Assembly: GCA_038528235.1 (NCBI GenBank)
Contig: JBCBEX010000002.1
Span: forward strand, 44,914-108,913
Direction of reading: 5' to 3'
Source of the DNA: Bacteroidota bacterium
GTDB taxonomy: Bacteria; Bacteroidota; Rhodothermia; Rhodothermales; Rubricoccaceae
DNA: 64,000 bases
Part shown: positions 7,521-47,589 of the stretch, piece by piece
Layout: each line of letters begins with the position of its first letter
Numbering within the stretch: position 1 is the first letter of the stretch
Made by a program: the position numbers and the translations under genes
The notes under the pieces: generated by a model
The model's input: only the letters and a program-made list of their open reading frames with translations
What the model was told of the DNA's origin: nothing
The model's database searches: none

Positions 7521-7614
7521 AAAGGTGCCGTGCTTGCGGAGGAGCGTCAAGGCAATATCGCGAGACGGTATCGGGACGGCTCCCCCCGTTTTGGTTGACG
7601 GTCGCTATGCTCCC

Positions 7615-7654
7615 AATCAACCAAAACTGTCCCCCTCACGTGTGAGGGGGACAG
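7615..7654 (-). terminator. rho-independent terminator downstream of rnd
   Basis: Near-perfect palindrome CTGTCCCCCTCAC/GTGAGGGGGACAG, followed on the minus strand by GTTTTGG. Confidence 0.6.
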
Positions 7655-7715
7655 CTTGACCGCCGTCCAGGCGTGTCAAGCGAGGGGAGCCGCGCCGAGC
7701 ACCGTCTACTATTCG

Positions 7716-9725: not shown

Positions 9726-10139
9726 ATGGCTGTTAAACTTCGTCTTCGTCGCCTTACTACTGCAAAGCGCCCACGCTATGCGGTCGTTGCAACCAAGCGG
9801 TTGGCACCCAACCGTGTTCGTGTTATCGAGAGGCTAGGTCACTACGAGCCCGTCCAGAATCAAGGCAAGGTCACGCTGAAGGCCGAGCGCATCCGTTACT
9901 GGCTACGGCAAGGAGCCCAACCCTCGAACAAAGTTAGATCTATCCTCTCGACACAGGGCATTGCCGTTGGTCCTGGCCTCACAGAGGACGAGGTAGCACT
10001 TGACTTAGAACTGTCACGGATCCTGAGCGAGGTCAGAGAGTCTGCTCGCGTCATCGCCACAGCCTCTCAGAAAATCGATCACCTTCTTCCGATCACGAAC
10101 GAGATCGCAGAGACGTACGCGCACGCATCAAACGACTGA
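9726..10139 (+). CDS. rpsP: 30S ribosomal protein S16-like, divergent, with C-terminal extension
   Basis: MAVKLRLRRLTTAKRPRYAVVATKRLAPNRVRVIERLGHYEP...RIRYWLRQGAQPSNKV follows the S16 pattern, but conserved G/K/D/G positions are substituted. The gene is visibly lower in GC. Confidence 0.65.
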   Translation: MAVKLRLRRLTTAKRPRYAVVATKRLAPNRVRVIERLGHYEPVQNQGKVTLKAERIRYWLRQGAQPSNKVRSILSTQGIAVGPGLTEDEVALDLELSRILSEVRESARVIATASQKIDHLLPITNEIAETYAHASND

Positions 10140-10140
10140 G

Positions 10141-10491
10141 ATGGGGTGGGTTGACACAGCAAAAGATCTCGGTAAGGAGATCGCAGCACTGCTGAGACAA
10201 GTCATTACCCTCGAAGGCAAGGTCCATCACCTTGGCGAAAACACGGAACGCATTCGCAAGGAACAACAGGAGTTCATAGATCACGTCAACGAGGACGTCA
10301 GAGAACTCCGGAGAGACTTTGATGAGGTCCGTCGTCGCCTCGCTCGGATCGAAGGCACACTCGACGCTACCTTCCAAAAATCATACAAGGAAGCGTTATT
10401 ACAACTCGCCCGCGAGTACCTCGACAAGCATGGCTCGCTTGACGGCTTCGACCCAGGCCGTCTCACTGACGCAGGCAGCCGCGACAGCTAG
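10141..10491 (+). CDS. coiled-coil hypothetical protein
   Basis: 116-aa ORF starting 2 nt after the S16-like stop (TGAGATG). Heptad-rich charged sequence in the same lower-GC islet. Confidence 0.45.
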   Translation: MGWVDTAKDLGKEIAALLRQVITLEGKVHHLGENTERIRKEQQEFIDHVNEDVRELRRDFDEVRRRLARIEGTLDATFQKSYKEALLQLAREYLDKHGSLDGFDPGRLTDAGSRDS

Positions 10492-11027: not shown

Positions 11028-11037
11028 AAGGCTCTTT

Positions 11038-11099
11038 CGCAACACGCAACACGCAACACGCAACACGCAACACGCAACACGCAACACGCAACACGCAAC
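11038..11099. repeat. heptanucleotide tandem repeat (AACACGC) about 8.5 copies
   Basis: Read directly. It fills most of the 74-nt spacer between the carboxypeptidase stop (11102) and the TlpA-like start (11027). Confidence 0.9.
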
Positions 11100-11101
11100 C
11101 G

Positions 11102-12727
11102 TCAATTCCCGCCTATGCAGCCCGTTCCGCTCATCGTCGAGCGCAGGCCGTCCTCATCGGGAATCCGCAGGACCGGGTAGAGGCCGCCTTCCTGGAGCGC
11201 GTCGCCGAGGACGTTCCAGGCGACGGCGCCGTCGTCGGAGCGGGGCTCCAAGATGGTGAAGGCGAGGCGCGCGAGCGGCTGCGTCATCGGCACGACGACG
11301 CCTGCGACGGGGCCGTCGACGCGCTCCCAGGATCCCGTCACCTCGGTGATCTGCCGCTGCTGGAACTCGCTGAGCACCTTCACGGAGTCGATGCGGAAGC
11401 CCTCGGCGGGACCGCAGAAGCCTTCGCGGGGGATACCCCACGTGATGCCGTGCACGTCGAGGAGGTCGCGGAGCCCCTGCAGGTCGCGTGGGAAGACGTA
11501 GGCGGCGGTCAGCGTGTTCGTCTCCGTCGCCTCGAAGCGCGTGAAGGCGGGCATCACCTCCGGCGTGACCACTTTGCGGCGGTGGCGCACCGGCTCGCCC
11601 GTGGTGGGATGCGGGATCTCCACGGTGTCGCCCATCAGGATCGTCGTGTCGCCCTCGCTCACGTGCTGGGCGCGCAGCGCGAACGGTTGCCCCCGGAGCG
11701 CGCCCTGTGCAGCCTCGGCGTCGAGGCGGTCGGTGAGCGCCTGGATCCGATCGGCGTGGGCCGCGACCACGTCGGCGATGCTGATCACGAACATCCTCGT
11801 GGCGTTGATGCGCTCCTCGAACGTCGCGTAGCTGTAGGCCTCGCTCAGAATCCCGATGCGGTTGCGCAGGCCGACGTAGTTCGTCGAGAAGCGCGGACGG
11901 GCGTCGAAGGTGTACCAGCCGCGGGGGCGCGTCACGGGCTCGCCGAACGCGCCGGGGACGTTGCCGTAGTCGAAGATCTCGTAGCCGATGCGCTCGCGCA
12001 CGGAGTCGCGGACGGCGGGCAGGATCCGCTGCCGGACCTCCGCGTCGAGCGCAGGCGCGGTGTTGGGCGAGAGCGGCGGGCTGTAGGTGAGGTGGTAGGC
12101 GTGCTGCGTGCCGTTGGTCGTGTGCAGGTCGACGACCACGTGCGGGTCGTAGTCCTCGAAGAGCTGCAGCATGGCGCGCGTCTCAGGCGCGGCGACCTTC
12201 ACGAAGTCGCGGTTGAGGTCGAGGCCCTGCGCGTTGGCCCGCTGCCCCATGCCTTCGATGGGTCCGTGTTGGTAGGGGCGGTTGTCGAGGGCGATGCGCT
12301 CGTTGCCGTCGGCGTTGTAGATCGGCGCGATCAGCAGCACCAGGTTCTCCCAGAGGAAGTGGTCGTCCCGGATGTCGCGCACGAGTTCGAGCAGCGCCTC
12401 CTTACCCGCCACCTCTCCTGCGTGGATGTTGGCGAACACGAAGAGGCGCAGTTTGCCCGTCGCCAGGACGGCCTCGGCCGACGACGAATCCGCCCCGACG
12501 ACGACGAGCGGCAGCGGCCGTCCCTCGACCGACTCGCCGAAGCTCGTCAGGTGCAACTCGTTGTAGAGCGAGGTCAGCTCCAACTGCGCTTCGATGTACG
12601 TCATTGCTGCGTCGTAGGTCGTCGTAGCCTCGTAGTTGGAGAACTCGGCGGCGGTGTAGTTCAGCTCAGGCGGGGGCGGGCAGCCGAGGAGTGCCACAGC
12701 GAGAACGAAGGACAGCAGGCGGGACAT
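11102..12727 (-). CDS. M14-family zinc carboxypeptidase lipoprotein
   Basis: The internal ATG at 12727 gives MSRLLSFVLAVALLGC. HxxE zinc motif FANIHAGEVAG and a later DLHTTNG ligand region are present. Confidence 0.8.
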   Translation of the reverse strand: MSRLLSFVLAVALLGCPPPPELNYTAAEFSNYEATTTYDAAMTYIEAQLELTSLYNELHLTSFGESVEGRPLPLVVVGADSSSAEAVLATGKLRLFVFANIHAGEVAGKEALLELVRDIRDDHFLWENLVLLIAPIYNADGNERIALDNRPYQHGPIEGMGQRANAQGLDLNRDFVKVAAPETRAMLQLFEDYDPHVVVDLHTTNGTQHAYHLTYSPPLSPNTAPALDAEVRQRILPAVRDSVRERIGYEIFDYGNVPGAFGEPVTRPRGWYTFDARPRFSTNYVGLRNRIGILSEAYSYATFEERINATRMFVISIADVVAAHADRIQALTDRLDAEAAQGALRGQPFALRAQHVSEGDTTILMGDTVEIPHPTTGEPVRHRRKVVTPEVMPAFTRFEATETNTLTAAYVFPRDLQGLRDLLDVHGITWGIPREGFCGPAEGFRIDSVKVLSEFQQRQITEVTGSWERVDGPVAGVVVPMTQPLARLAFTILEPRSDDGAVAWNVLGDALQEGGLYPVLRIPDEDGLRSTMSGTGCIGGN

Positions 12728-12943
12728 AGGCAGCAAACGGTCGAGCAGAAACAGCGATCGGGCAGAGTATAGGCCCGGCCGCGCTGCGGCGGCGGGCACC
12801 CTCCCCCCAACGCCGCAGCCCGGCGCGGCATTGCACGGAGCCGCATCGCACGGCGCGGCCAGCGATGCACACTCTGGGGCCCACGTAAGCGGAACGACGC
12901 TTGCAGGCGTCTGGTAGGCCCCACAGCCAACCTCTACGTCGCC

Positions 12944-13225
12944 ATGTCCGACTACATGCCTATCGCCTGCGGCTTCCACGATCGGCTCGAACACTGGGCC
13001 GTCCGCCGCGACCCGATCACGCTCGTCTGGCGCGACACCCTCGCTGCCAACGCACCGGAGCGCACCGCGCGCGTCCGCATCGCCGACCTCTTCGCCAACG
13101 ACGGCGCCGACTGGGTTCGCCTCACGCTGACCGATACTGAGGGCGACGGAGCTCCCGCCGAGGTCGTCATCCGTGCCGACCAGGTCGTCTCTGCCGAGGG
13201 CCACCGCCTCGCCCAGGCGTGCTGA
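12944..13225 (+). CDS. Rof-like (Rho-binding antiterminator family) protein
   Basis: MSDYMPIACGFHDRLEHWAV matches the N-terminal YxPIxCxxxDxLE pattern of Rof; about 90 aa. Confidence 0.55.
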   Translation: MSDYMPIACGFHDRLEHWAVRRDPITLVWRDTLAANAPERTARVRIADLFANDGADWVRLTLTDTEGDGAPAEVVIRADQVVSAEGHRLAQAC

Positions 13226-13288
13226 GCTATCTCGGTGCCCCCATCTTCATCTTGTCATCCGGAACTACCCGATTCCTGTCTCTCCCCC

Positions 13289-14626
13289 ATGCAGTTCGAC
13301 CCCGCCAAGCTCGCCCGCCTTGCTGAGAAGGCCGACCTCAAGCGCCTCCTCGACCGCCTCGACGGGATGAGCGCCGACGAGATCGCCTCGTTTGTGGGGA
13401 CCGGCGGCGACGGGGCGCAGGGACAGCCCGCCCTCCCCAAACCGCGCACCGTCAAGGAGCCGGACGTCGACTTCTACCGCTTCTTCGAGCGGCACCTTAC
13501 GGCCGAGCAGCAGCGCACCCGCGAGGTCGTCCACGCGTGGATGCTCGACGAGGTGCGTCCGATCATCAACGACTACTGGGAGCGCGGCGAGATGCCGTTC
13601 GAGCTCGTCCCGAAGATGGCGGCGATGCTGCGTGAGGCCTATGGCGATCATCCCGGCCGCCGCTACTGCTCCGACCCGCTCCTGACCGGCCTCGTCGGGA
13701 TGGAGGTTGCTCGCGTGGACCCGTCCGTGGGCACCTTCCTCGGCGTGCACTGGGGGCTGTGCCTCATCTCGCTGCACTTCTTCGGCAGCGACGCGCAGAA
13801 GGCAAAGTGGTACGACCGGCTCGAACGCTTCGAGGCCATCGGCTCCTGGGCCCTCACCGAACCCGAGCACGGCTCCGACGCCGCGCTCGGCCTGGAGACG
13901 ACCGCCGAGCGGCGCGGCGACACCTGGGTGCTCAACGGTGCCAAGAAATGGTCTGGCAACGCCACCTTCGCCGATGTGACGGTGATATGGGCCAAAGACA
14001 CGGCCGATGGCAACGTGAAGGGCTTCCTCGTCGAGAAGGGCACCCCTGGCTTCACCGTCGAGAAGCTGCCGGGCAAAATCGCCAAGCGCTCCGTCGAGAA
14101 CGTGCTGATCGGGCTGGAGAACGTGGAGGTGAGCGAGGCCGACCGGCTGCCGGGCGTGAACAGCTTCCGCGACGTGGCCGCGCAGCTCGCCACAGCCCGC
14201 GCGGGCGTCGCGTGGGAGGCCTGCGGCATGGCCATGGGGCTCTACGAGCAGACGCAGCGCTACTGCACCGAGCGCGTCCAGTTCGGCAAGCCCATCGCGG
14301 GCTACCAGCTCGTGCAGAACGGCCTCGTGGAGATGCTCGGCAACGTGATCGCCATTCAGGGCATGGTCCTCCAACTCGCCACGCTCTACGACGACCTCCG
14401 GGCGCTGCACGCGCGTGCGTCGCTCGCGAAGGTGTTCTGCGTGAGCAAGATGCGCGAGACGGCCAGCATCGGGCGCGGCCTGCTCGGCGGCAACGGCATC
14501 CTGCTGGAGCACGACGTGGCGCGGCTGTTTGCCGACGCCGAGGCGGTCTACTCCTACGAGGGCACCCACGAGATGAACACGCTCATCGTCGGCCGCGCCA
14601 TCACCGGGTTGAGCGCGTTCGTGTAG
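13289..14626 (+). CDS. acyl-CoA dehydrogenase (glutaryl-CoA dehydrogenase-like)
   Basis: ACAD-type sequence throughout (WALTEPEHGSDA, ...[23 protein letters not shown] end). Start chosen at ATG 13289 (MQFDPAKL) inside track ORF 13235..14626. Confidence 0.85.
   Translation: MQFDPAKLARLAEKADLKRLLDRLDGMSADEIASFVGTGGDGAQGQPALPKPRTVKEPDVDFYRFFERHLTAEQQRTREVVHAWMLDEVRPIINDYWERGEMPFELVPKMAAMLREAYGDHPGRRYCSDPLLTGLVGMEVARVDPSVGTFLGVHWGLCLISLHFFGSDAQKAKWYDRLERFEAIGSWALTEPEHGSDAALGLETTAERRGDTWVLNGAKKWSGNATFADVTVIWAKDTADGNVKGFLVEKGTPGFTVEKLPGKIAKRSVENVLIGLENVEVSEADRLPGVNSFRDVAAQLATARAGVAWEACGMAMGLYEQTQRYCTERVQFGKPIAGYQLVQNGLVEMLGNVIAIQGMVLQLATLYDDLRALHARASLAKVFCVSKMRETASIGRGLLGGNGILLEHDVARLFADAEAVYSYEGTHEMNTLIVGRAITGLSAFV
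14480..14626 (+). repeat. direct repeat copy 0: in-gene 3' terminal 147 nt of the acyl-CoA dehydrogenase
   Basis: 49 codons including TAG. Reference copy for the downstream repeats. Confidence 0.9.
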
Positions 14627-14661
14627 GAGATTGTCCCTGGTCTTTTGTCCTTGTTCGTTCG

Positions 14662-15078
14662 ATGGGACACGTCACTTCGTTGCTTGGCAAAATCAGGGTG
14701 CCCGCAGATCACGGGTGGGAGAACGCAGCCATGCTCAACGAGGCTGCGATCAGGGCACTCCCAGAACGTGACGAGTATCCTTGGCTCGAACGTTCCATGT
14801 TTGCCCTTAGGCAGACACCTTCATTCTACCGTGAGCGAACGCTCCATTTCGCTACGACAATGAAGGCCATGTCAGACGCTGAATTCGAGACGTGGCTCAT
14901 CAAGTTCGAGCAACTCCTGCGCGACATGTCGTGGCTCTCGGTCGATGTGTTCATCGAAACTGAGGGCCAAAGCTCACTCTCCCGATATTGGTGGGTGACA
15001 CAACGCTATGACGGTGGTGCTTCCTCCGTGTGGGAACGAGGCGTAGACCGCTTCCGCTCTATCAGCACGCCTTCCTGA
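14662..15078 (+). CDS. hypothetical protein (cassette 1 cargo, low GC)
   Basis: ATG at 14662 (MGHVTSLL...) in the tail of track ORF 13759..15078. An alternative start is MLNEAAI at 14731. Visibly lower GC. No domain recognised. Confidence 0.4.
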   Translation: MGHVTSLLGKIRVPADHGWENAAMLNEAAIRALPERDEYPWLERSMFALRQTPSFYRERTLHFATTMKAMSDAEFETWLIKFEQLLRDMSWLSVDVFIETEGQSSLSRYWWVTQRYDGGASSVWERGVDRFRSISTPS

Positions 15079-15081
15079 ACG

Positions 15082-15306
15082 TCACAACAGCTCTCGGAAC
15101 TCGTCCACGGTCAACCCAGCCTCGCGGATGATCGCGCGGAGCGTGCCCTTGGCGACCTCTTTGTGGTCCGGTACCACCACGCGTCGATGCGGCGCGACCG
15201 CCTGACGTAGGATCATATGGCTTCCCTTCTGCCGGTCGAGATCGTAGCCGAGCTTCGCCAACGCTTTGACCACATCGCGCCCGGAGACTACCGGAAGACG
15301 GCCCAC
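15082..15306 (-). CDS. hicA: HicA-family mRNA interferase toxin
   Basis: MGRLPVVSGRDVVKALAKLGYDLDRQKGSHMILRQ matches the HicA/YcfA signature; 74 aa. Confidence 0.8.
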   Translation of the reverse strand: MGRLPVVSGRDVVKALAKLGYDLDRQKGSHMILRQAVAPHRRVVVPDHKEVAKGTLRAIIREAGLTVDEFRELL

Positions 15307-15308
15307 TT

Positions 15309-15515
15309 CTACACCTCGACGAGTTCTTCCGTGATCGGCGGCGGGATGGGATCCCCATGCGCCTCTAGGCTCTCGATGTAGAGCGCAATCGCCTCCTTCA
15401 CGCTGACGAGGGCCTCCCCCCGCGTCGCACCATCCGCGATGCAGCCAGGGAGGCTAGGGACGGAGGCGATGAACACGCCGTCCTCGTCGGTTTCGATTAG
15501 AACTCGATACTTCAT
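15309..15515 (-). CDS. hicB: HicB-family antitoxin (UPF0150-like)
   Basis: MKYRVLIETDEDGVFIASVPSLPGCIADGATRGEA matches the HicB N-terminal fold pattern. The stop lies 2 nt before the hicA start. An upstream ATG at 15527 is also possible. Confidence 0.75.
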   Translation of the reverse strand: MKYRVLIETDEDGVFIASVPSLPGCIADGATRGEALVSVKEAIALYIESLEAHGDPIPPPITEELVEV

Positions 15516-15580
15516 AGCAGCACACATCGGGTGGAAGACACCGGATGTACCCTGGCGATCCTCTGAGGTTCAGCGGCGGT

Positions 15581-15727
15581 CTGTTCGGCGGCAACGGCAT
15601 CCTGCTGGAGCACGACGTGGCGCGGCTGTTTGCCGACGCCGAGGCGGTCTACTCCTACGAGGGCACCCACGAGATGAGCACGCTCATCGTCGGCCGCGCC
15701 ATCACCGGGCAGAGCGCGTTTGTCTAA
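15581..15727 (+). repeat. direct repeat copy 1: displaced copy of the acyl-CoA dehydrogenase 3' end
   Basis: 147 nt with 7 nt differences from copy 0 (L>F, N>S, L>Q, two synonymous, TAG>TAA). Confidence 0.9.
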
Positions 15728-15736
15728 CCCCGCTCT

Positions 15737-15946
15737 TTACTCGGCTCCACGCTGCGCGTCTTTCTCACGTGCCTCTGCGATGAGGTCGTCAAGCGAGACC
15801 TCTCCAATCCACGTGTGGCGCTCGGCGGTGTAGTCGCCGCGTCCGGTGTCGAATTGGCGGAGGAAGCGAAACGCGTCCACCACGCCGAGTGCGCGCACAA
15901 GCGCCGCGTGGCCGTCCCGGTTGATATCCGCAAGGGGGCGAGTCAT
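15737..15946 (-). CDS. small protein downstream of the PIN gene (putative TA partner)
   Basis: 69-aa ORF starting 11 nt after the PIN ORF stop. Family not recognised with confidence. Confidence 0.45.
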   Translation of the reverse strand: MTRPLADINRDGHAALVRALGVVDAFRFLRQFDTGRGDYTAERHTWIGEVSLDDLIAEAREKDAQRGAE

Positions 15947-15956
15947 GGCTGAGGCT

Positions 15957-16394
15957 TTAGCGTAGCCGAAGGATCAGTTCGAGGGGAGATACGACCGCCG
16001 TGCTCTCGGTGTTCGCCGCGTGCCCCCGGTTGAGCAAGGCATCGTCTGTCGTGCAGAAAATGTCCGCCCGCGCTTCGACGGCTGCTGCCAGGTGCAGCGC
16101 ATCGAGCGCCTTGATCCCGTCCGCCTCGTAGCTGCGCGCTCGCCGCACAACGCCCTCTTCCATCGGCATGTAGATCTCGGCTAGCGCAAGCGCGTCCTCC
16201 GCATGGGCACGGCGATCCGGAAAAGGACACCGAGCATTTTCGATGGCATGTACGCTCGACGCGACGAGACGCAGGGTGCCGACCTCGCACAAAGACAGCA
16301 CGTTCAACACCGCGTCTGCTTCTGTACGGACGCGCAGTTGTGCCTAGTCGTCGAACGGACGCTGAAGGGCACACGAGTCGAGATAGACGAGCAT
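15957..16394 (-). pseudogene. PIN-domain (VapC-like) gene interrupted by an in-frame TAG
   Basis: Hand translation from ATG 16394 gives MLVYLDSCALQRPFDD-TAG-AQLRVRTEADAVLNVLSLCE..., continuing into track ORF 15957..16310. The TAG at 16344..16346 sits where related proteins, from memory, have FDDQ (CAG). Confidence 0.65.
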
Positions 16395-16421
16395 GCTGGC
16401 AAGCTACGACGCCCGGCCCAC

Positions 16422-16568
16422 CTGCTCGGCGGCAACGGCATCCTGCTGGAGCACGACGTAGCGCGGCTGTTTGCGGATGCTGAGGCGGTCTACTCGTATG
16501 AGGGCACCCACGAAATGAACACGCTCATCGTCGGCCGCGCCATCACCGGGCTGAGCGCGTTCGTGTAG
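16422..16568 (+). repeat. direct repeat copy 2: displaced copy of the acyl-CoA dehydrogenase 3' end
   Basis: 147 nt with 8 nt differences from copy 0, all synonymous in the dehydrogenase frame. TAG is retained. Confidence 0.9.
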
Positions 16569-16595
16569 CGAGCCCAGACCGAACCAGCCATACGC

Positions 16596-17453
16596 TCAAA
16601 ACAGGGTGCGGTACTCGCTGGGCGACATCCCCACGTGCTTCTTGAAGGCTGTGCTGAAGGCGGCCATGTTCGTGTAGCCAACCGCGAACGCCGTCTCCGT
16701 CACCGGCGTGTCGTTCGCGAGGCACTCCATGGCCCGGAGCATTCGCGCGGTGCGCAGGAAGTCGCCCCAGGGCATCCGGATCTCGGCCTTGAGCTTCCGC
16801 ATCAGCGTGCGCGGCGTCATCGCGACCTCTGCGGCGACCTCTTCGAGCCGCACTGGCTCGGCGAGCCGAGCCTCGGTGTAGCTGAGCGCGGCGACTACCT
16901 GTTCGGACCGGGCCTTCGGCAGGACGAGTTGACGCCCCAGCGCCATCTGCTCGATGCACAGTTCGAGCAAGGTGAGCAGGAACCGCTCCATGTGGGCCTC
17001 CTTCTCGGTAGACGACGCAGACCACCCCTGCGCATGCTTGATCATCTCACGCATGACCGGAGAGACGGAAAAGACCTGGAGGGTGTCGGACACCGCCGGG
17101 GCAAAGTCCTTCGCGAAGAAGATCGAGGCGCACTTGACGCGCTTGATGTTGGTCGTCTGGACGTGGGTCCCGGCCGGCAACCAGGCGGCGCGCGACGGTG
17201 GAAGCCGCCACGAGCCGCGGTCGGTTTCCATGAGGAACAGGCCTTCCAGGCCGTAGAGCAAGACGTGGCGATCGAGCGCCATCGAGAGGTCGACGGCCTC
17301 CATCACGATCGTGTGGAAGAAGACGCGGGCCCGGCTCTCGTGAATGGCGCGCAGCACCTCCTCAGGCGTCCGTTCCGCACCCGACGACGCCCCTTGGTCG
17401 CCCCCCTCAGAGACGGGGTGCTGGTGCTCGGAGGCATCGATAGTCGTTTCCAC
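16596..17453 (-). CDS. AraC-family transcriptional regulator
   Basis: C-terminal AraC HTH pattern (...VAAEVAMTPRTLMRKLK...TAFAVGYTNMAAFSTAFKKHVGMSPSEYR). Confidence 0.8.
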   Translation of the reverse strand: METTIDASEHQHPVSEGGDQGASSGAERTPEEVLRAIHESRARVFFHTIVMEAVDLSMALDRHVLLYGLEGLFLMETDRGSWRLPPSRAAWLPAGTHVQTTNIKRVKCASIFFAKDFAPAVSDTLQVFSVSPVMREMIKHAQGWSASSTEKEAHMERFLLTLLELCIEQMALGRQLVLPKARSEQVVAALSYTEARLAEPVRLEEVAAEVAMTPRTLMRKLKAEIRMPWGDFLRTARMLRAMECLANDTPVTETAFAVGYTNMAAFSTAFKKHVGMSPSEYRTLF

Positions 17454-17564
17454 GAAAGGGTTCGTCGTCTCGGCAAAGGCACGCTCGGACCGACATCCCT
17501 ACGTTTTTCCAGCGGGGCTTTCCACCGCACTCACTCGACCACGCACCGCAGGAAAAAGCGACCT

Positions 17565-18362
17565 ATGCGCCGATCCAACACGATCATACTGATACACGGC
17601 AACTTCGTCAACCACCACGCTTGGGCCCACTGGAAAGCCCACTATGAGGCGCGCGGCTACACCGTCTACACGCCTGCCAACCCCGGCCACGAAGGCACGC
17701 CCGCAGACCTCCGGCAGAACGTGCACCCCGACCTCGGCGCCACAGGGTTTGTCGACATCGTCGAGCGCCTGGAGCAGTTCATCGACACGCTTCCCGAGGA
17801 GCCCTTCGTCGTGGGTCATTCGATGGCGGGGCTAGCCGTGATGAAGCTCGTCGAGCGCGGCAAGGCCGTGGCAGGTGTGAGCCTCCACGGAGCCCCGCCG
17901 AAGAACGTGGCGCCCGTGCCCTTCCAGACGCTCAGGACAGCGCTACCCTCGATCGGGCTCCTCTCGCGCAAGAAGACCTGGCTGGGGCCGCGCTCGTGGT
18001 ATGACTATGCCTTCTTCAACACGCTGCCCGAAGCGCAGCGGCAAGCCGCGTACGACCGCTCGATTGTACCGGAGAGTTTCAAGGTCGGCCGCCAGCTCCT
18101 CTTCCACCGCCTCGCGCGCGTTGATTTCTCCAAACCCCACGTGCCGCTCCTGTTCGTCGGCGGCGGCAGCGACCACATCTTCCCAACCAGCCTCACGAAG
18201 CGGATCGCGAGGCAATACAAGGACCCGCAGAGCAGCGTCGATGTCAAGATCTTCGAGGGGCGGAGCCACTTCACCTGTGGCGAGCCCGGATGGGAGCACG
18301 TGGCCGACTACATCCTCGACTGGTACGAAGGACTCCCCTCTGCGCAAGACCCAACCATGTAA
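17565..18362 (+). CDS. alpha/beta hydrolase
   Basis: The ATG at 17565 gives MRRSNTIILIHGNF. Nucleophile elbow GHSMAG is present. Divergent from the AraC gene. Confidence 0.75.
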   Translation: MRRSNTIILIHGNFVNHHAWAHWKAHYEARGYTVYTPANPGHEGTPADLRQNVHPDLGATGFVDIVERLEQFIDTLPEEPFVVGHSMAGLAVMKLVERGKAVAGVSLHGAPPKNVAPVPFQTLRTALPSIGLLSRKKTWLGPRSWYDYAFFNTLPEAQRQAAYDRSIVPESFKVGRQLLFHRLARVDFSKPHVPLLFVGGGSDHIFPTSLTKRIARQYKDPQSSVDVKIFEGRSHFTCGEPGWEHVADYILDWYEGLPSAQDPTM

Positions 18363-18440
18363 CGTCTTTCACCTTCTCGTGCCTGACGTTCCGATCGGCG
18401 CGACATGGTGCGGCTCTTCCACCATGCTGGGCCACATCAG

Positions 18441-18477
18441 CGGCCGCGCTATCACCGGGCTGAGCGCGTTCGTGTAA
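18441..18477 (+). repeat. direct repeat copy 3: last 37 nt of the acyl-CoA dehydrogenase 3' end
   Basis: cggccgcgctatcaccgggctgagcgcgttcgtgtaa has 2 synonymous differences plus TAG>TAA relative to copy 0. Confidence 0.85.
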
Positions 18478-18512
18478 GACCGTGTGCGGGTAGCGCGGTC
18501 AGGCCCCGGCGG

Positions 18513-20579
18513 CTACGACCACCAGCCTCCCATCCATTCCCACAGGTCGCTCCACCACTGGTAGGCGTCGTTGCCCTCCGATGGCTCCGCGCACGGCCCC
18601 TGTGTGGCGCCCTGGCTGAGATAGTACTCCAGCGCTGTTCCGGACTTGCTCATGGTGAGCCCGTTGTAGCAGATCACGGTCTCACTCGGTTCCTGCGGCC
18701 CCCCCGTGGGAAGCTCCTGCTCCGAGGCCTCCGCCATGGCCTGCTCGCTGGCGGTGGAGCTCTGGGCCGCTGAAGCCAGGTGCCGGATGTTGTCCGAGGA
18801 ATAGCCGAGGCGACGCAAGGCCGGCTCCAGGCGCGCCTGGTCGAACTCGAGCGTGACGTTGGGGCCGAAGTTGACCGCAGAGCCATAGCCCATGCCGTTC
18901 TCGATGTCGGTGCGCCACTGCTGGTCGGCGGCGATCTCAGCGTCGCGCTCGGCGGTGTCCCAGGCCCCGCGCCGGTGCCAGTAGAAGACGGCCTCGTAGA
19001 TCAGGTCCTCGGCGAGGAGCGTCTCGTGGAAGAGCTTGACGCGGAGCGCGCCGCCGCGGTCGTAGAGCCACTTGGTGTTGAAAGGCCAGTTGAGCGGGAC
19101 GCATCCGGTATTCCACGGGTAGGTGTTCCACGTGCAGTCGGCCTCGGGGTCAGTCGTAGGCTCGTCGTCGAAGTGGTGCTTGAGGAGGCGGAGGCTCCGG
19201 ATGTCGATCTCGAACGCGTCGATGTCCTGCGCCTCGAAGGTGCGGGTGCGGTGCTGCGCGATGTCGCTCGCGGAGAAGCCGCCGAAGCCGCCGTTGATGG
19301 AGCCGACGCGGGTTGTGTCCTCGGCGGCCAGGCGGAAGTTGGCGAGGCCGTCGTAGCTCAGGTTGTCGAACTCGAAGAAGACCTGGTCGGTCGGGCTGAG
19401 GTTGCCCAGCGTCTCCGAGAGGCGGCTGTACGATTCGTGGGGGTTGCCGCCCGGCCGGTCGAGCAGGGTCACCTGCCGGTCTGGCATGAACCGCTCGCTG
19501 CGGTGGGTGTGCTGCGTCCACGAGTTGGAGTACATGTCGATCTCGCCGCTCGGCTGCGCCCACTGGCCGGTCATGTCGCGGTAGATCGTGAGGTCCATGT
19601 GCCCTCCCGGCGGCGGCGCCTCCTGCTCCACGATGAGCGCCCCGCGGATCTCGGCCGTCCCCGTGCTCACGTCCATCCGCACCTCCTGCTCGAAGGAGCG
19701 AATGTAGATGAGGCCGTCCCACCGGAGTGTGCCCTCCACGACGAGGTTGCCCTCCACCAGGAGCACGCCGTTGCCTTCGAGCGTTCGCCCGGACGGGATA
19801 CGCAGGTCCCCCTCGACCCGCACGAAGCGGGCATCACGCACGCTGCGGCTCCCGCGCTGCCCGTAGGCCTGGTTGCTCGACAGCGTGGTCGACGCCGTCA
19901 GCTGGACATCTTGCGCAGTGAAGCCCGAGAGGATGTCCCCGTAGAGTTCGACGAGGCTCGGCGTGCTATACGCGCTCAGCACCGACCCCAGATCCTGCCG
20001 GGCATCGAGGCCTTGGCGCGTTCCAGCCGCCGCACTGAGCGCCGACTGGATGTTGTTCACCATCGTCGATGCGCTGAGGATGTTGTCGAGGCGGTAGTCA
20101 TAGAGCTTGCTGTAGTCGAGATAGCTCGCGCGCAGCAGCCCGTCATCGTCCACCGCGTTGATCGTCGTCATGGGGTCGATGGTGGCTGTGGCGTAGGGCG
20201 CGTCGATCCAGAGCGGCCCGGGGAAGTCCACGTCGGTGACGAGGTAGTTGCTCGCGATGCTGTGCTGGCTTCCGCCGCTCATGCCCGTCACGGAGAAGTA
20301 GACGGTGTCGCCGCGCGGCTCGAATCGGTCGATGCGCACGCTGCGCCCGTCGATCTCGAACGTCTCCGCGAGCGGGAGGTCGTTGTTGAGCTGACCGCCG
20401 CGCAGCATCGCCGTGAGGACTGCCGTGTGGGCGGCGTCGGCGGCCTCGCGGGCGAGCGCGAGGTCGTGCGTGGCCGACTGCTTGCGCTGCGCGTCGAGCC
20501 GCGTCGAGGAGTCTCGGAGCAGGGTCGTCGCCGTCGTGACAGCGGCAACCATGACGATGAGTACGAGGAAGCGTCCCAT
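18513..20579 (-). CDS. large N-terminally anchored protein, PilX/PilY-like (pseudopilus-associated?)
   Basis: The internal ATG at 20579 gives MGRFLVLIVMVAAVTTATTLL. The segment GNGVLLVEGNLVVEGTLRWDGLIYI recalls PilX-like minor-pilin proteins, from memory. Trp-rich C-terminus. Confidence 0.5.
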   Translation of the reverse strand: MGRFLVLIVMVAAVTTATTLLRDSSTRLDAQRKQSATHDLALAREAADAAHTAVLTAMLRGGQLNNDLPLAETFEIDGRSVRIDRFEPRGDTVYFSVTGMSGGSQHSIASNYLVTDVDFPGPLWIDAPYATATIDPMTTINAVDDDGLLRASYLDYSKLYDYRLDNILSASTMVNNIQSALSAAAGTRQGLDARQDLGSVLSAYSTPSLVELYGDILSGFTAQDVQLTASTTLSSNQAYGQRGSRSVRDARFVRVEGDLRIPSGRTLEGNGVLLVEGNLVVEGTLRWDGLIYIRSFEQEVRMDVSTGTAEIRGALIVEQEAPPPGGHMDLTIYRDMTGQWAQPSGEIDMYSNSWTQHTHRSERFMPDRQVTLLDRPGGNPHESYSRLSETLGNLSPTDQVFFEFDNLSYDGLANFRLAAEDTTRVGSINGGFGGFSASDIAQHRTRTFEAQDIDAFEIDIRSLRLLKHHFDDEPTTDPEADCTWNTYPWNTGCVPLNWPFNTKWLYDRGGALRVKLFHETLLAEDLIYEAVFYWHRRGAWDTAERDAEIAADQQWRTDIENGMGYGSAVNFGPNVTLEFDQARLEPALRRLGYSSDNIRHLASAAQSSTASEQAMAEASEQELPTGGPQEPSETVICYNGLTMSKSGTALEYYLSQGATQGPCAEPSEGNDAYQWWSDLWEWMGGWWS

Positions 20580-20646
20580 GACAGGGTACGAGGTCGGTCG
20601 GGGAAAAGTGGAGGACGGAGCGCAGGCAAAGAGCCAGCGTGGTGCG

Positions 20647-21399
20647 TCAGTCGTCGTCGCCACCGCTGCTGCCTCCCGACTCCCACGTTGTGGTCGGAGA
20701 GGACGCCCCCGGGGTGCTGCCGGTGACGAAGCCTCCGCTCGCAGAGCGCTCGAGGTAGGTGAGGTTGGGTGGGCGCACCGTGTGCCCAAAGCGTGCCACG
20801 TTGATCTGGCGCTCGGAAGCCTGGTCGCTGGTGAGCGCCGCGGTGCCCTGGCTCGCCAGTTCGACGTTGAGCTGCAGCGCGTAGAGATCGGCCGGGGCCG
20901 CCCCGTCGGTAACTGGTGCCCCGCTGGCACCGAACAGGGTCACGTCGAAGCCAATCACGGCGTCCGCGACCGGCTGCGTGTCGGCGCCCATAAAGGTGTC
21001 GATGTCCCGGTGGAGGACGTAGGCCGTTCGGACCGAGTCGCCCACGGTGTAGGAGCGCCCAGCCGGCTGCGTCCAGTAGCGCACGGTGCCAGGTTCTTTA
21101 TTACCGGGCTCGGTTTCAATCAACCCGGGGCACTGAATGGACTTCACGACCCCATCGCTGTGCCGTTCGAGGACGCAGCCGGACGGGGCGAGGCCCATAT
21201 CCCCCGCATCGCCCTCGGTGACGAGGTTGTTGAGATCCTGGCCGAGGCTGGTCATCACGGCCTCGCCCCGCGTCTGGAGCTCGTAGCGCATGGCTTCGTC
21301 GACGCTGTTGAGGCGCTCGCGCATCTGGAACACGAGCAGCGCCACCAGCAGCACCGTGCCAACGATGATGGCTGAGAGATGGTCGAGGAGGACGTGCAT
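20647..21399 (-). CDS. N-terminally anchored protein, PilW-like architecture
   Basis: MHVLLDHLSAIIVGTVLLVALLVFQMRERLNSVDEAMRYELQTRGEAVMTSLGQDLNNL resembles a minor-pilin N-terminal helix but lacks G-F-T-L-I-E. Confidence 0.45.
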   Translation of the reverse strand: MHVLLDHLSAIIVGTVLLVALLVFQMRERLNSVDEAMRYELQTRGEAVMTSLGQDLNNLVTEGDAGDMGLAPSGCVLERHSDGVVKSIQCPGLIETEPGNKEPGTVRYWTQPAGRSYTVGDSVRTAYVLHRDIDTFMGADTQPVADAVIGFDVTLFGASGAPVTDGAAPADLYALQLNVELASQGTAALTSDQASERQINVARFGHTVRPPNLTYLERSASGGFVTGSTPGASSPTTTWESGGSSGGDDD

Positions 21400-21456
21400 G
21401 GACGGGTACGTTGGGGCGGCGGGTCAGGCGGACGGGGCGGCGGAGAAGCGGGTGGC

Positions 21457-21993
21457 CTACTGGTGGAGGAAGAGCTTGGCAGGCGTGAGGGGGACGTCCA
21501 ACGTGATCTCCATCGGCGGGCGGTCCGAGGCCACCTCGACGGCGCGTGTCACCACCGTGACGCTCTTGGCCGTGGTCTCGCTTGCGCTATCGATCTCGAA
21601 GTCGAGCGGACTGACGTAGCGCACCGAGAAGGACACGGTGTAGTCCTGCGTGCCCTCTCCGATGGGCTGGCTCACCGTGATGCTGTATCCGTTGAAGTCG
21701 TCGATGTCGTCGAAGGTGTCGGGGCTGGTTTCCCCGGCTTCAGGGCCGAGGCCCGCTGGCGGGGCCAGGCCGGCCACGTCGCTTTCGGAGCGCATCCCGA
21801 GCACGCCCACGTCGGCCTCGTCGAAGGCGTAGTTCTTGACCTGGTTGGCCCAGTGGAGCGCCACGTTGAGGCCCACACTTTCGATCTCGCGGGCAATGGC
21901 GTTGCGTTCGGTGTTGTTGACGTGGCGGTGCATGGTGAGCCCCACCATGGTGAACATGAACACGGCAATCAGGGAGTAGAAGGTCTGAGTCAT
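21457..21993 (-). CDS. N-terminally anchored protein, PilV-like architecture
   Basis: MTQTFYSLIAVFMFTMVGLTM is a degenerate prepilin-like helix with no Gly-1 or Glu+5. First gene of a same-strand trio. Confidence 0.45.
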   Translation of the reverse strand: MTQTFYSLIAVFMFTMVGLTMHRHVNNTERNAIAREIESVGLNVALHWANQVKNYAFDEADVGVLGMRSESDVAGLAPPAGLGPEAGETSPDTFDDIDDFNGYSITVSQPIGEGTQDYTVSFSVRYVSPLDFEIDSASETTAKSVTVVTRAVEVASDRPPMEITLDVPLTPAKLFLHQ

Positions 21994-22406
21994 GGGGCCG
22001 TCGGCGGAGAGACGCAGGGCGTGGAACTTGACGAGGACCCTATGCCTCCGAGAACAGCGTTCCTCTGGCGCCGTATCTCACTATGGGACCCGGTTGTGGA
22101 ATCGGAGTGCGGTAATTCCCGGCTCTATTGCCCTCTAGCAACTACCGTCCCATTTTAGGACTGGGCCCCTTTCGAAACGGGTAGACAGACCTGCCAGAGG
22201 ACCCACCGCATGCCCCTTCGTACCGCTCCCGTCCGTCCCTCCCCAGCGCGGTCTCCCAGTCGAGTCGGCGATCTGCGCAGCTTCCAGCGACCGCCATAGC
22301 ACGGGGCCCCCGCGATTTTTCTGTGGGGACGCCTCGGCCTTCGAAACCTGCCCCCCGGGCTCGCCATTTGCGCCCGCTCCCGTTCTCCCGCCAACACCCC
22401 GCTCCC

Positions 22407-22826
22407 GTGTCCGACTTCACGCCCCTAAAACTCGCCGACCCACAGCCCGTCCTCGACGCCGCAACGTATAACGCCGACGGCCTTGTGACCGCCATCGCGC
22501 AGGACTATGCCACAGGCGACGTGCTCATGCTCGCCTACATGAACGCCGACACGCTGCGCGAGACGCTGGAGACCGGCACGATGGTCTACTGGAGCCGCTC
22601 GCGCCAGAAGGTGTGGCGCAAGGGCGAGTCGTCGGGCAACACGCAGCGCGTCGTGAGCGTGCACGTCGACTGCGACGGGGACGCCATTCTCTTCAAGATC
22701 GAGCAGATTGGCGGGGCTGCGTGCCACACGGGGCGCCGCACTTGCTTCTACCTGGAAGCCACCAACGACGGTCTCGTCGAGCGCGGCGAGCTGCTCTTCG
22801 ACCCGGCCAAGGTATACGGCTCCTGA
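22407..22826 (+). CDS. hisI: phosphoribosyl-AMP cyclohydrolase
   Basis: DGLVTAIAQDYATGDVLMLAYMN...WSRSRQKVWRKGESSGNTQ...DCDGDAILFKIEQIGGAACHTGRRTCFY. Start placed at GTG 22407 within track ORF 22323..22826. Confidence 0.85.
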   Translation: MSDFTPLKLADPQPVLDAATYNADGLVTAIAQDYATGDVLMLAYMNADTLRETLETGTMVYWSRSRQKVWRKGESSGNTQRVVSVHVDCDGDAILFKIEQIGGAACHTGRRTCFYLEATNDGLVERGELLFDPAKVYGS

Positions 22827-22863
22827 ACGGCGCCCGGCGCGGCGTTCATCGACCGCACTGCCT

Positions 22864-23109
22864 CTATCGACCGCGCACCTTGTTGACGATGAAGAGCAGC
22901 AGGATCGCGCCGACCGTGGCAACGACGATGCTGAAGATCAATCCGCCGTCGTCGCCGATGCCGATCAGGTCGAACACGAAACCACCGAGGATCGCGCCGA
23001 GGAGGCCGACGCCGAGGTTGCCGAGCAGGCCCATCGAGCGCTTCATCACTTTCTCCGCGATGAAGCCTGCAACGAGGCCGACGATGATCCAGAAGAGCAG
23101 GCCGCCCAT
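22864..23109 (-). CDS. GlsB/YeaQ/YmgE-family stress-response membrane protein
   Basis: The internal ATG at 23109 gives MGGLLFWIIVGLVAGFIAEKVM...GAILGGFVF, the transglycosylase-associated family pattern. Confidence 0.8.
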   Translation of the reverse strand: MGGLLFWIIVGLVAGFIAEKVMKRSMGLLGNLGVGLLGAILGGFVFDLIGIGDDGGLIFSIVVATVGAILLLFIVNKVRGR

Positions 23110-23228
23110 GACTGCGTAGGGTTGGTGGTGTGAGGCCGGTGGTGCCTCTAAAGTAGGCGTCCGTCCGGACTCTACCAACCAAACCGGACCAACGAAGTCT
23201 GGACGATGATGTCGCGCGGCGGTACGAA

Positions 23229-23747
23229 CTAGCGCTGCGTCGTGTGCGCGAACTGGGCACCGAGGCGGGCGCAGAGCGTCTCCAGCGCGGCCTGGTCCTC
23301 GGCCGCGGTGAACGCATCCGGGTCGTCCGAGTCAACATCGAGCACGGCGAGGAGCGTGCCCTCAGGGGTGAGCACCGGCACAACGACCTCCGAACGCGTC
23401 GACGACGAGCAGGCGATGTGGCCGGGGAACGCCTCCACATCGGGGACGAGTTGCGTGGTCTGGGTGCGCGCCGCTGCGCCGCAGACGCCCCGGTCGAATG
23501 GGATACGCAGACAGCCGTGGCCGCCCTGGTACGGCCCGACGACGAGCAGGTCGTCGGACACGGCGCGGTAGAAGCCGGTCCAGTGGTAGTGGTCGAACGC
23601 GTGGTGCAGTTCGCAGGCGACCGTCGCCATGGCCGCCGTCCAGTCCGTCTCGCCGTCCAGCAGCGCGTCGATGCGGGCGGCGACCTCGGCGTAGCGCTCC
23701 GTGCGGGTTGCGGTGTGGGCGGCGGCGGGGGGTGCGTGCGTGCTCAT
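23229..23747 (-). CDS. msrC: GAF-domain protein (free methionine-R-sulfoxide reductase-like)
   Basis: WTGFYR...LVVGPYQGGHGCLRIPFDRGVCGAAA...PGHIACSSSTRSEVVVP matches the YebR/MsrC-type GAF pattern. Confidence 0.75.
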   Translation of the reverse strand: MSTHAPPAAAHTATRTERYAEVAARIDALLDGETDWTAAMATVACELHHAFDHYHWTGFYRAVSDDLLVVGPYQGGHGCLRIPFDRGVCGAAARTQTTQLVPDVEAFPGHIACSSSTRSEVVVPVLTPEGTLLAVLDVDSDDPDAFTAAEDQAALETLCARLGAQFAHTTQR

Positions 23748-24328
23748 TAGGCGTATTCGGGGTTTTTGCCATTGATCGTGGCGAAGTGGTCGCGCATGAG
23801 TTCGATCTGCCGCTCCATGTCGCCGTTGGTGCGGACGAGCGGGCCCAGCCGCACTTCGCGCGTCGGATAGTCAAGCGCGATCATGAAGAGCGGCACCTGC
23901 GCCCGGTGGGCGATGTGATAGAAGCCCGTACGCCAGCGGTTGACGCGCTTGCGGGTCCCCTCAGGCGTCACGGCGAGCACAAACTCCTCGCGCGCGAAGA
24001 GGTCTACGACGTCTTCGACGAGGTGGCCGCTTCGGCCTCGCCGGACGGGAATGCCTTCGAGCAGCCGCAGGAGCCACCCGAGCGGGCCGCGAAACAGCGT
24101 GTGCTTCGCCAAGAACCGCACGCGCACCCCGATGGCGACGGCCGCGGCTAGGCCGATCAGCCCGTCCCAGTTGGAGGTGTGGGGCGCCACCACCAGCACG
24201 AAGCGCGGCTCGTTGGGCAGCTCGCCTACGATGCGCCACCGGCCGCAGACCGCAAGTACGAACCGCCCGAAGGCCCGCGAGAACGCGTTGCCGCGCCGGG
24301 GGGCCGCATCGCCAAGGGTAGGAATCAT
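23747..24328 (-). CDS. 1-acyl-sn-glycerol-3-phosphate acyltransferase family protein
   Basis: Internal ATG at 24328 (MIPTLGD). HxxxxD-type motif APHTSNWDG and the later VTPEGTR block are present. The stop overlaps the msrC start (TAATG). Confidence 0.75.
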   Translation of the reverse strand: MIPTLGDAAPRRGNAFSRAFGRFVLAVCGRWRIVGELPNEPRFVLVVAPHTSNWDGLIGLAAAVAIGVRVRFLAKHTLFRGPLGWLLRLLEGIPVRRGRSGHLVEDVVDLFAREEFVLAVTPEGTRKRVNRWRTGFYHIAHRAQVPLFMIALDYPTREVRLGPLVRTNGDMERQIELMRDHFATINGKNPEYA

Positions 24329-24644
24329 CGGAGAGGTGGATGGGATCGGTTGGGAAACGGAGCACTTCCTGGGTTGGGTTCCTCGCCACGCCAGCCTCCC
24401 CCGATCCGATTCCGTGAGACGATGTGCCTCTGGCGGAAACCCTGACCTAGTCATCCGGTGAACTCCAAGGGTACAACGATCCGATGGGCGCATCCAGCCC
24501 CATCCTGCCCTGCGTGTCTCGATCTTGCCCTGGCCCGTGTCTACCTCTGTCTCCGCTCTTGCCGTTGCGCCAATGCCGCCCCCAGGGACGGTGGCGCGCG
24601 GGTATGCCGGGCCGCTCCCCCACTTCGACCCAGCGCGTCTCCCC

Positions 24645-26356: not shown

Positions 26357-26470
26357 TGGGCGACGGGCCGTTCTTCTCAGGGGCGGAGGCCGCCCTCTGG
26401 GGGAACGCCTGATTGAAGGCAGCCGTCTCCCCTGCCTATCCTGGGAGTCCACCTCTCTAACGCCGTTCCC

Positions 26471-47582: not shown

Positions 47583-47589
47583 CTCCTGA

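Follow-up and report, generated by a model that had tools for sequence, protein, structure and literature searches.

The 3′ end of an acyl-CoA dehydrogenase gene as a putative attachment site for small cassettes lacking a recombinase in uncultured Bacteroidota

Introduction

A stretch of 64,000 nucleotides (nt) from a Bacteroidota bacterium of the Rubricoccaceae (assembly GCA_038528235.1, contig JBCBEX010000002.1, positions 44,914 to 108,913), hereafter the window, contains an acyl-CoA dehydrogenase gene whose 3′ end is present four times in direct orientation. The three intervals between the copies, here called cassettes E1, E2 and E3 in order from the gene, each hold a small set of genes. 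How did the end of an intact coding gene come to be repeated in this way, and how did the genes between the copies arrive there? On balance, the stack was probably formed by the serial site-specific integration of circular cassettes that restore the end of the gene, in which the last ~40 nt of the gene would be used as the attachment site by a recombinase acting in trans.

Tandem accretion is known for islands of tens of kilobases (kb) with evident integrases, whereas the units described here have the scale of a single operon and no recombinase was found in or near the stack. The question is testable, as matched strains with empty and with occupied sites are already public.

Results

The gene end is present four times

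The dehydrogenase gene is intact and its product is identical to MEL6769608.1 (NCBI). The closest named relatives, from Rubrivirga and other Rubricoccaceae (Rhodothermales), show 70–74% protein identity, and close fragments of the protein are named glutaryl-CoA dehydrogenase by their source databases. The copies of its 3′ end measure 147, 147, 147 and 43 nt (Table 1). A preliminary description, made from the sequence alone, had reported four direct copies with the stop codons TAG, TAA, TAG and TAA at a constant position, and with 7 and 8 nt differences in the second and third copies, all of which was confirmed by repeat search and alignment. The repeat search returned a 151-nt unit three times, at 14475–14625, 15576–15726 (95%) and 16417–16567 (93%), and the terminal 45 nt four times, with the fourth copy at 18435–18479. 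Within the 64 kb, a gene-end 35-mer had these four sites at up to three mismatches and none besides, where none was expected (100 shuffles), and the scan with a gene-end 21-mer had the same outcome. The homology ends at the stop codon, and the aligned sequences beyond it are unrelated between the cassettes of the window.

Related loci are empty or differently occupied

Ten related loci were compared, the window among them; the nine others (L001, L002, L015, L161 and L172 to L176), from related metagenome-assembled genomes (MAGs), carry orthologues of the gene with 91–95% nucleotide identity. In L172 and L174 the site is empty, and the gene directly adjoins the convergent downstream open reading frame (ORF). 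Window positions 11102–14627 and 18435–28487 each align unbroken to L172 and L174, the second of them matching L172 8955–18997 and L174 (94%) from 43 nt before their stops. As the final 43 nt of the gene (CATCGTCGGCCGCGCCATCACNGGNCTNAGCGCGTTYGTNTAR) are common to both alignments, window positions 14627–18434 are a 3.8-kb insertion flanked by a duplicate of 43 nt from the gene end. The 147-nt copies proposed as the repeat unit in the preliminary description are real, but the duplication that defines the insertion with respect to the empty site is of 43 nt; in the same way the fourth copy, described there as the last 37 nt, which are indeed contiguous, extends over 43 nt (18435–18477). Copy 4 is the end that the gene had originally, and it runs on into the ancestral downstream sequence.

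The remaining loci are occupied in different ways. In L173 and L175 (contigs JBCBNX010000013 and JBCBMK010000161), the flanks of which are 99.6–99.9% identical to those of the empty strains L172 and L174, the gene is followed by an M78-peptidase gene and an ORF of 161 amino acids (aa), after which the contigs end at a fragment of an insertion sequence. L001 shows the gene, E2 and a 147-nt copy, and L015, with flanks 95% identical to those of L001, shows the gene, a TIR gene with HicAB and a degenerate copy of ~40 nt. In L161 the gene is followed by a 131-aa ORF, a 52-nt copy, E2 and a 110-nt copy, and then by the same downstream junction as in the window, and in L176 by a 146-aa ORF, a degenerate copy of ~40 nt, E2 and a 147-nt copy. 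L002 retains no more than eroded traces of E2 and of one copy. In three of the four stacks of the lineage, more recent cassettes separate E2 from the gene. The alleles of E2 are 77–94% identical, compared to 91–95% for the host gene, so at least some copies of E2 are not simply descended with their host.

The invariant arrangement that would have refuted the preliminary description is not observed: the locus is empty in two strains, carries another cassette in two more and other stacks in four lineages. The site is a live insertion hot spot, not a peculiarity of one genome, and the strain-level presence and absence of cassettes shows that turnover is recent and still under way in this little-studied lineage of uncultured, marine or saline Bacteroidota.

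Among 160–170 orthologous loci from genome and metagenome collections, extra copies of the gene end were found only in this lineage and in L005, and no close relatives were found in a metagenome scan. L005 (JAIOJS010000208, positions 1522–2711), binned to another phylum under the label Thermoanaerobaculia, is an independent instance: its dehydrogenase gene and a ~119-nt repeat of that gene's own end flank a DUF4279 gene. Over its last 40 nt the repeat shows a single difference, with several nonsynonymous changes farther upstream. As the L005 dehydrogenase shares 71% identity with that of the window, the contig may have been binned wrongly.

A search with the 48-aa C-terminus, which returned more than 120 short 'glutaryl-CoA dehydrogenase' ORFs, was rejected as support for the dehydrogenase end being a widespread attachment site. 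On the long contigs that were inspected, these were either single genes broken by frameshifts in assemblies of long reads or isolated remnants with no cassette structure next to them. A separate observation was made in Kribbella soli (L170, CP107956.1, positions 10001–10255), where the dehydrogenase-like part of an isolated 84-aa ORF starts at the same residue as the 147-nt copies of the window. There is no full-length gene within 10 kb and two alpha/beta hydrolase genes adjoin the ORF, which may be a coincidence or an old remnant.

Occupied genes have replaced ends

Between L173 and L174, none of 447 upstream positions differs, but 4 of the final 30 do (Fisher 1e-5). Three of these changes are coding and synonymous, and the fourth falls in the stop codon, which is lost in L174 (TAG to CAG). 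For the gene of L176 and the 147-nt copy behind E2, an identical stretch of 110 nt gives way to 8 silent differences in the last 37 nt (9e-6), and 8 of the 15 differences between L001 and L015 fall in the last 36 nt. In the occupied genes the last ~30–36 nt have been replaced, with only synonymous differences from the empty alleles. Short copies of ~40–43 nt are found independently as copy 4 of the window and in L015 and L176. Counted together, five or more independent junctions, differing in cargo, have a breakpoint 35–43 nt before the stop. This pattern is the signature of elements that enter the 3′ end of a gene with a replacement for the part that they displace, and the crossover would take place ~35–43 nt before the stop (CATCGTCGGCCGC...). 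In the L174 assembly (GCA_038525005.1), the CAG at 11336–11338 in place of the stop opens a 548-aa read-through into the convergent downstream gene, which is uncalled in that assembly.

The displaced copies of the window can be followed in the same way. All eight differences between copy 3 and copy 1 are synonymous (P about 2e-5), so both diverged during service as gene ends. Copy 3, which has the L172 allele at −96, −75 and −72, was thus a working end of the gene before its displacement. Together with the synonymous ends of the occupied genes, this agrees with the earlier proposal that the cassettes restore the end of the gene. Of the 7 nt at which copy 2 departs from the gene end, 4 are nonsynonymous (L>F, N>S, L>Q); this copy has the look of an abandoned, displaced end in the course of drift or decay. 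Its tail, TTTGTCTAA, is also the tail of the functional gene end in L001, which likewise adjoins E2, so the TTTGTCTAA end travels with E2.

The 147-nt copies behind E1 and E2 have a common left edge at −147, which suggests either a second crossover site at this position or passenger homology in the arm of the cassette. By eye, 13 of 19 nt are alike between the sequences at −147 and at −43, a lead only, which hints at a second site for the same enzyme.

As a separate observation, the last ~140 nt of the window gene show 90–91% DNA identity to Chloroflexota loci such as L037, L055 and L056, as close a match as that to L001 (90%), a MAG of the same lineage, whereas the whole proteins are only ~54% identical. 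The likeness may be due to a high content of guanine plus cytosine (GC) and a conserved peptide, or to an exchange of gene ends between taxa.

Cargo of the cassettes

The genes within the cassettes are listed in Table 1; across the lineage the cargo is mostly of the toxin–antitoxin or defence type. The HicAB, PIN, AraC and hydrolase genes named in the preliminary description were all recognised by Pfam; the PIN gene, however, proved to be a pseudogene, as its codon 17 is a TAG in the window, where L001, L161 and L176, which have an intact E2 at the same locus, show CAG (Gln). The loss of the toxin while the presumed antitoxin is kept is the usual order of decay for such pairs. The cluster of the E2 antitoxin includes a fourth MAG besides the window. 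The HicAB pair of L015 is 80% identical to that of E1, and its neighbour there is the TIR gene and not the orphan ORF. The hydrolase of E3 is alone in its 90% cluster and was seen in this MAG only.

Table 1. Coordinates of the dehydrogenase gene, the copies of its end and the cassettes, in window positions.
Feature	Position	Strand	Evidence
Target gene: glutaryl-CoA-dehydrogenase-like acyl-CoA dehydrogenase, 445 aa, intact	13289..14626	+	Pfam Acyl-CoA_dh_N/M/1
Copy 1: functional last 147 nt of the gene, stop TAG	14480..14626	+	
Minimal repeated unit, putative attachment zone: last 43 nt of the gene	14584..14626	+	Overlap of two alignments to L172, SNP-cluster breakpoints, short copies in L015 and L176 (SNP, single-nucleotide polymorphism)
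Cassette E1, 954 nt, GC 0.59: orphan ORF and HicAB	14627..15580		Pfam, GC
E1 orphan ORF, 115 aa, no Pfam family	14731-15078	+	
hicA (E1)	15082-15306	-	Pfam HicA 1.2e-19
hicB (E1)	15309-15527	-	Pfam HicB 4.9e-10
Copy 2: 147 nt, stop TAA	15581..15727	+	
Cassette E2, 694 nt, GC 0.64: 69-aa partner ORF and PIN gene	15728..16421	-	
E2 partner ORF, 69 aa, intact, no Pfam family	15737-15946	-	
E2 PIN toxin gene, pseudogene, in-frame TAG at codon 17 (16344-16346)	15957-16394	-	Pfam PIN 6.4e-5
Copy 3: 147 nt, stop TAG	16422..16568	+	
Cassette E3, 1866 nt, GC 0.65: AraC regulator and alpha/beta hydrolase, divergent	16569..18434		
E3 AraC-family regulator	16596-17453	-	Pfam HTH_18 6e-22
E3 alpha/beta hydrolase	17565-18362	+	Pfam 7e-19
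Copy 4: 43 nt, stop TAA, contiguous identity over last 37 nt	18435..18477	+	Empty-site comparison
Convergent downstream gene, right flank: ORF up to 805 aa (688 aa called in L172), no Pfam/NCBIfam match	18513..20930	-	

The GC content of the cassettes (range 0.56–0.65; 0.555 in the orphan-ORF part of E1) is lower than that of the flanks (0.67–0.69). Most of the cassette genes (HicAB, PIN with its antitoxin, and AraC) face away from the host gene. E1 was also found on a separate 1035-nt contig in an independent assembly, as expected of a contig broken at the repeats, with no circle junction. Promoter and terminator scans of the stack detected nothing above background, the scans not covering Bacteroidota-type promoters, and neither tRNA genes nor known RNA families were found at the site. 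The occurrence of the E2 pair between gene-end repeats elsewhere was also considered and rejected, as a 65% homologue in Rubrivirga lies at an unrelated locus with repeats at chance level only.

Some 40 nt after the stop are conserved at window 14627–14667, L161 1137–1180 and L176 1835–1875, and are followed by different sequences in each case (the orphan ORF of E1, the 131-aa ORF, and a spacer that precedes the downstream gene). The conserved segment could belong to the arm of a single family of cassettes, or could be an alternative 3′ flank of ancestral origin.

Search for a recombinase and for carriers

No integrase, resolvase or transposase domain was detected by Pfam among ~50 ORFs of the 64-kb window. 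About nine of the ORFs had no match of any kind, and the remaining matches correspond to ordinary chromosomal genes. The statement in the preliminary description that the 64 kb hold no recombinase ORF is thus valid for the scanned ORFs, although the nine or so without a match are not strictly covered by it. In the seven fully sequenced cassettes (E1 to E3 and those of L161, L176, L001 and L015), checked by Pfam on their ORFs or by precomputed Pfam matches for called genes, no fragment of a recombinase, integrase or transfer gene was recognised. In phage, plasmid and viral-contig collections there was no carrier of the repeat or of the cassette genes.

Flanking sequences

The C-terminal end of the convergent downstream ORF varies, with ~75 aa in the window and L172 and ~16 aa in L176; from this difference between lineages it follows that the hot spot remodels the end of the neighbouring gene as well. 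The right flank consists of a glyoxalase gene, a 195/273-aa ORF and an S9 peptidase gene in L001 and L015, and of the 805-aa ORF in the group of the window (window, L002, L161 and L172 to L176). Both blocks are present in series in L176, and a 50-nt remnant of the glyoxalase gene is kept directly after the dehydrogenase gene in L002. Breakpoints of larger rearrangements thus fall at the stack.

L172 and L174, which are 99.6% identical overall, differ in dense patches of SNPs at ~−4950 to −4050 and +4650 to +4800, in addition to a patch at the gene end (see Discussion), and these patches look like tracts of homologous recombination in the population.

Two other repeats were observed upstream of the gene. 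A nested palindrome of ~128 nt (window 7571–7698, with arms 7571–7591/7678–7698 and 7624–7639/7642–7657) is also found at L001 13353–13435 and L176 6966–7079, and looks like an intergenic repeat of the miniature inverted-repeat transposable element (MITE) or repetitive extragenic palindromic (REP) kind. At window ~11030–11105, a 21-nt unit is present three times in tandem at the junction of two thioredoxin-like/peptidase genes, and reads as VACCVLR x3 and NTQHATR x3 in ORFs of opposite strands.

Discussion

A possible route to the stack

If the stack arose by serial site-specific integration, the 3′ end of the dehydrogenase gene would serve as a chromosomal attachment site and gather small cassettes that have no recombinase. 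Each cassette, as a circle, would bear a copy of the final ~36–43 nt of the gene (up to 147 nt in some cases) and would recombine with the gene in a narrow zone ~35–43 nt before the stop. The copy brought by the cassette would become the new, synonymous end of the gene, leaving the enzyme intact, and the old end would move to the far side as a direct repeat; in the window, the last ~36–43 nt of copy 1 would come from the most recent cassette. Since E2 has been displaced from the gene in three of the four stacks, entry would take place mostly at the gene-proximal copy, and its repetition would generate a stack with the oldest cassette farthest from the gene. The order of insertion in the window would then be E3, E2 and E1. 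The most likely enzyme would be a site-specific recombinase of the tyrosine type that acts in trans from a gene located elsewhere, either in the host genome or on a different mobile element. The copies would later be homogenised by ordinary homologous recombination between them, as the 110-nt identity in L176 suggests, and deletions would erode both cassettes and copies, as in L002 and in the PIN pseudogene. By analogy with chromosomal integrons, where toxin–antitoxin genes are assigned a stabilising role, the toxin–antitoxin cargo probably helps the stack to resist loss by repeat-mediated deletion. The outline of serial site-specific integration with mobilisation in trans, put forward in the preliminary description, largely stands in this form, with both specificity and trans action read from the recurrent breakpoints.

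Several observations weigh against this sequence of events. The copies are uneven in length (147, 147 and 43 nt in the window, 52 and 110 nt in L161, ~119 nt in L005), which a single fixed attachment site of the cassette (attP) does not predict, so second sites or later deletions are needed. Beyond the copy of the gene end there is no arm sequence common to all the cassettes, the ~40 nt after the stop being present in three only. No recombinase, attP-bearing donor or circle junction was found in the assembled sequences and the collections searched. All the sequences are short-read MAG contigs, and the only demonstrably recent cassette, that with the M78 gene in L173 and L175, is cut by the contig ends and might belong to a larger element with its own integrase. 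Finally, the patch of SNPs from −273 to −21 that distinguishes L172 from L174 spans the gene end and corresponds to plain homologous exchange.

Other explanations

The cassettes could be the stumps of classical integrase-bearing islands, that is, elements decayed by deletion into a row of dead cis-mobilisable units that need a full neighbour to move. This is a documented route to tandem arrays at the 3′ ends of genes (PMC5704250, PMC3146451), and erosion is evident in the PIN pseudogene, in the remnants of E2 and of a copy in L002 and in the degenerate copies of L015 and L176; the truncated M78 element could also hold an integrase further on. In contrast, the seven fully sequenced cassettes keep no recognisable piece of an integrase or transfer gene, a full element was seen at the site in none of the ten loci, and the cassettes are compact (0.46–2.1 kb) and coding nearly up to the repeats, unlike the usual leftovers of random deletion. 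Thus, decay from islands is a possible but unlikely origin.

Circles or fragments bearing the gene end could also have been inserted without a site-specific enzyme, by a RecA-dependent single crossover of the Campbell type or by homology-facilitated illegitimate recombination. Circles could form by loop-out between two copies in a donor stack, the 147-nt repeats are long enough for RecA, and the copies vary in length between 43 and 147 nt. The last 147 nt, which would simply supply the homology, are also unusually conserved in DNA, even across phyla, gene conversion between copies is evident from the 110-nt identity in L176, and tracts of homologous exchange cross the gene end in the population. 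However, homologies of 36–43 nt are a poor substrate for RecA, breakpoints recur 35–43 nt ahead of the stop in at least five junctions that are independent and differ in cargo, the −147 edge is common to E1 and E2, and the origin of the first duplication would be left unexplained. We regard this route as improbable.

An assembly artefact, in which co-existing strains with single cassettes were joined into a false tandem through the shared repeat, is highly improbable: the contigs do come from mixed populations in which strains differing at the site co-exist, but copy-specific SNPs every ~20 nt can be resolved by long k-mers, two-cassette stacks with E2 appear in independent assemblies from other samples (L161 and L176), and the flanking duplication is present even at the single-cassette loci L001 and L015.

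If site-specific integration by a recombinase in trans is accepted and the enzyme is found, the dehydrogenase end would represent a compact, programmable attachment site of ~40 nt within a coding gene, and a new route for the circulation of defence and toxin–antitoxin genes. If there is no such recombinase, the locus would be a clean natural case of homologous recombination mimicking site-specific integration, of relevance for programs that call islands from direct repeats. As a more speculative extension, which we hold to be rather unlikely, Rhodothermales-like Bacteroidota could have a so far undescribed cassette-capture system, in which a distant recombinase, of the host or of a helper, would routinely insert and excise toxin–antitoxin or defence cassettes of 0.5–2 kb that require in cis only a ~40-nt copy of the gene end. 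Such a system would be a second, structurally unrelated answer to the function of integrons, with its site hidden within coding sequence, where selection for a working enzyme would keep it intact.

Comparison with known systems

The preliminary description could not assign this architecture to a named class of elements, but analogues do exist in the cis-mobilisable elements (CIMEs), in the recombinase-less units at the rlmH gene of staphylococci and in the remnant arrays of tycheposons. CIMEs lack integration and transfer genes, are bounded by attL and attR sites derived from the 3′ end of a protein-coding gene, and are arranged in tandem by successive site-specific integration (PMC5704250). 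The stack resembles those at the 3′ end of fda in Streptococcus thermophilus, related to the ICESt1/ICESt3 family among the ICEs (integrative and conjugative elements), in its tandem accretion and in the restoration of the gene on integration. As in CIMEs, the cassettes lie between direct copies of a gene end, for which L172 and L174 supply the empty sites, and their ORFs have no Pfam matches to integration or transfer genes. A replacement 3′ end with identity from the crossover to the end of the gene, as a gene-restoring attP would leave, was found in L173, L176, L001 and copy 4. However, CIMEs are recognisable deletion derivatives of ICEs or of integrative and mobilisable elements (IMEs), located beside, or having att sites in common with, a known relative that bears an integrase, and usually of several kb or more, whereas the cassettes of this lineage measure 0.46–2.1 kb, carry one to three genes, have no known parent element or integrase and are bounded in part by 147-nt repeats that exceed a typical core. 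In the ten loci there was no integrase or conjugation remnant and no full ICE or IME at the site, the M78 element being cut by the contig ends. The integrase that tyrosine-recombinase islands carry within the element was likewise absent from the fully sequenced cassettes and from the window.

In staphylococci, the staphylococcal cassette chromosome (SCC) elements and the pseudo-SCC elements are inserted at the 3′ end of rlmH (orfX) between direct repeats, and form composite stacks with units that lack a recombinase and rely on CcrAB in trans. Their large serine recombinases are often present in the stack, the repeats are of ~15–20 nt, the units are of 3–60 kb with resistance or metabolic cargo, and the host is a Firmicute. 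The dehydrogenase stack is similar in its target, the 3′ end of a housekeeping gene, and in its units without a recombinase bounded by direct repeats (SCC is also touched on in PMC3146451). It is not an SCC, as the target gene is another, the repeats are of 43–147 nt and no Resolvase or Recombinase domain was found in the window.

In the tycheposons of Prochlorococcus islands, incoming elements push earlier ones inward, partial copies of the target lie between them and integrase-less remnants persist (bioRxiv 10.1101/2020.12.28.424599). Tycheposons, however, target tRNA genes and have their own tyrosine recombinase and replication genes, and their remnants are fragmentary, in contrast to the compact, recurring cassettes found here. 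The target at this locus is protein-coding, no recombinase was found, and the sole tRNA gene of the window lies at 47510–47583. The ssrA islands of Dehalococcoides are also in tandem, downstream of a single-copy gene and each bounded by a direct repeat of its 3′ end, and cis-mobilisation has been proposed for some units, which have no integration module (PMC3146451); they differ in their RNA-gene target, in their 20-bp repeats, in their size of 10–30 kb and in the conserved serine-recombinase module of most units.

The dif modules (pdif) of Acinetobacter plasmids, of 0.5–3 kb, often encode toxin–antitoxin pairs, lack their own recombinase and are thought to be shuffled by the XerCD of the host (PMC6449649, PMC13141974). 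They are bounded by 28-bp dif-like sites in alternating orientation on plasmids, whereas the dehydrogenase copies are direct repeats of a coding end on the chromosome; all four have the same orientation, and no dif-like palindrome was recognised by eye.

Finally, the stack shares with integron arrays and with clusters of attC sites lacking an integron integrase (CALINs) very small cassettes without a recombinase, mostly of a single operon and rich in toxin–antitoxin genes, in which the new ones enter proximally. Integron cassettes are promoterless, co-oriented and bounded by folded attC sites, not by gene fragments, and a complete integron has IntI with attI and a Pc promoter beside the array. 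Around the end of the dehydrogenase gene, 81 nt folded as DNA gave −12.6 kcal/mol (z = 0.28 compared to shuffles), a value that does not indicate an attC-like fold; there is no Phage_integrase-type domain, as in IntI, among the ~50 ORFs of the window, and most of the cargo lies on the strand opposite to the host gene. The term integron-like, used in the preliminary description, is therefore apt for the stacking but overstated as an analogy. What is unusual in the stack with respect to all these systems is the combination of its single-operon scale, the lack of a parent element and the long, in-frame repeats.

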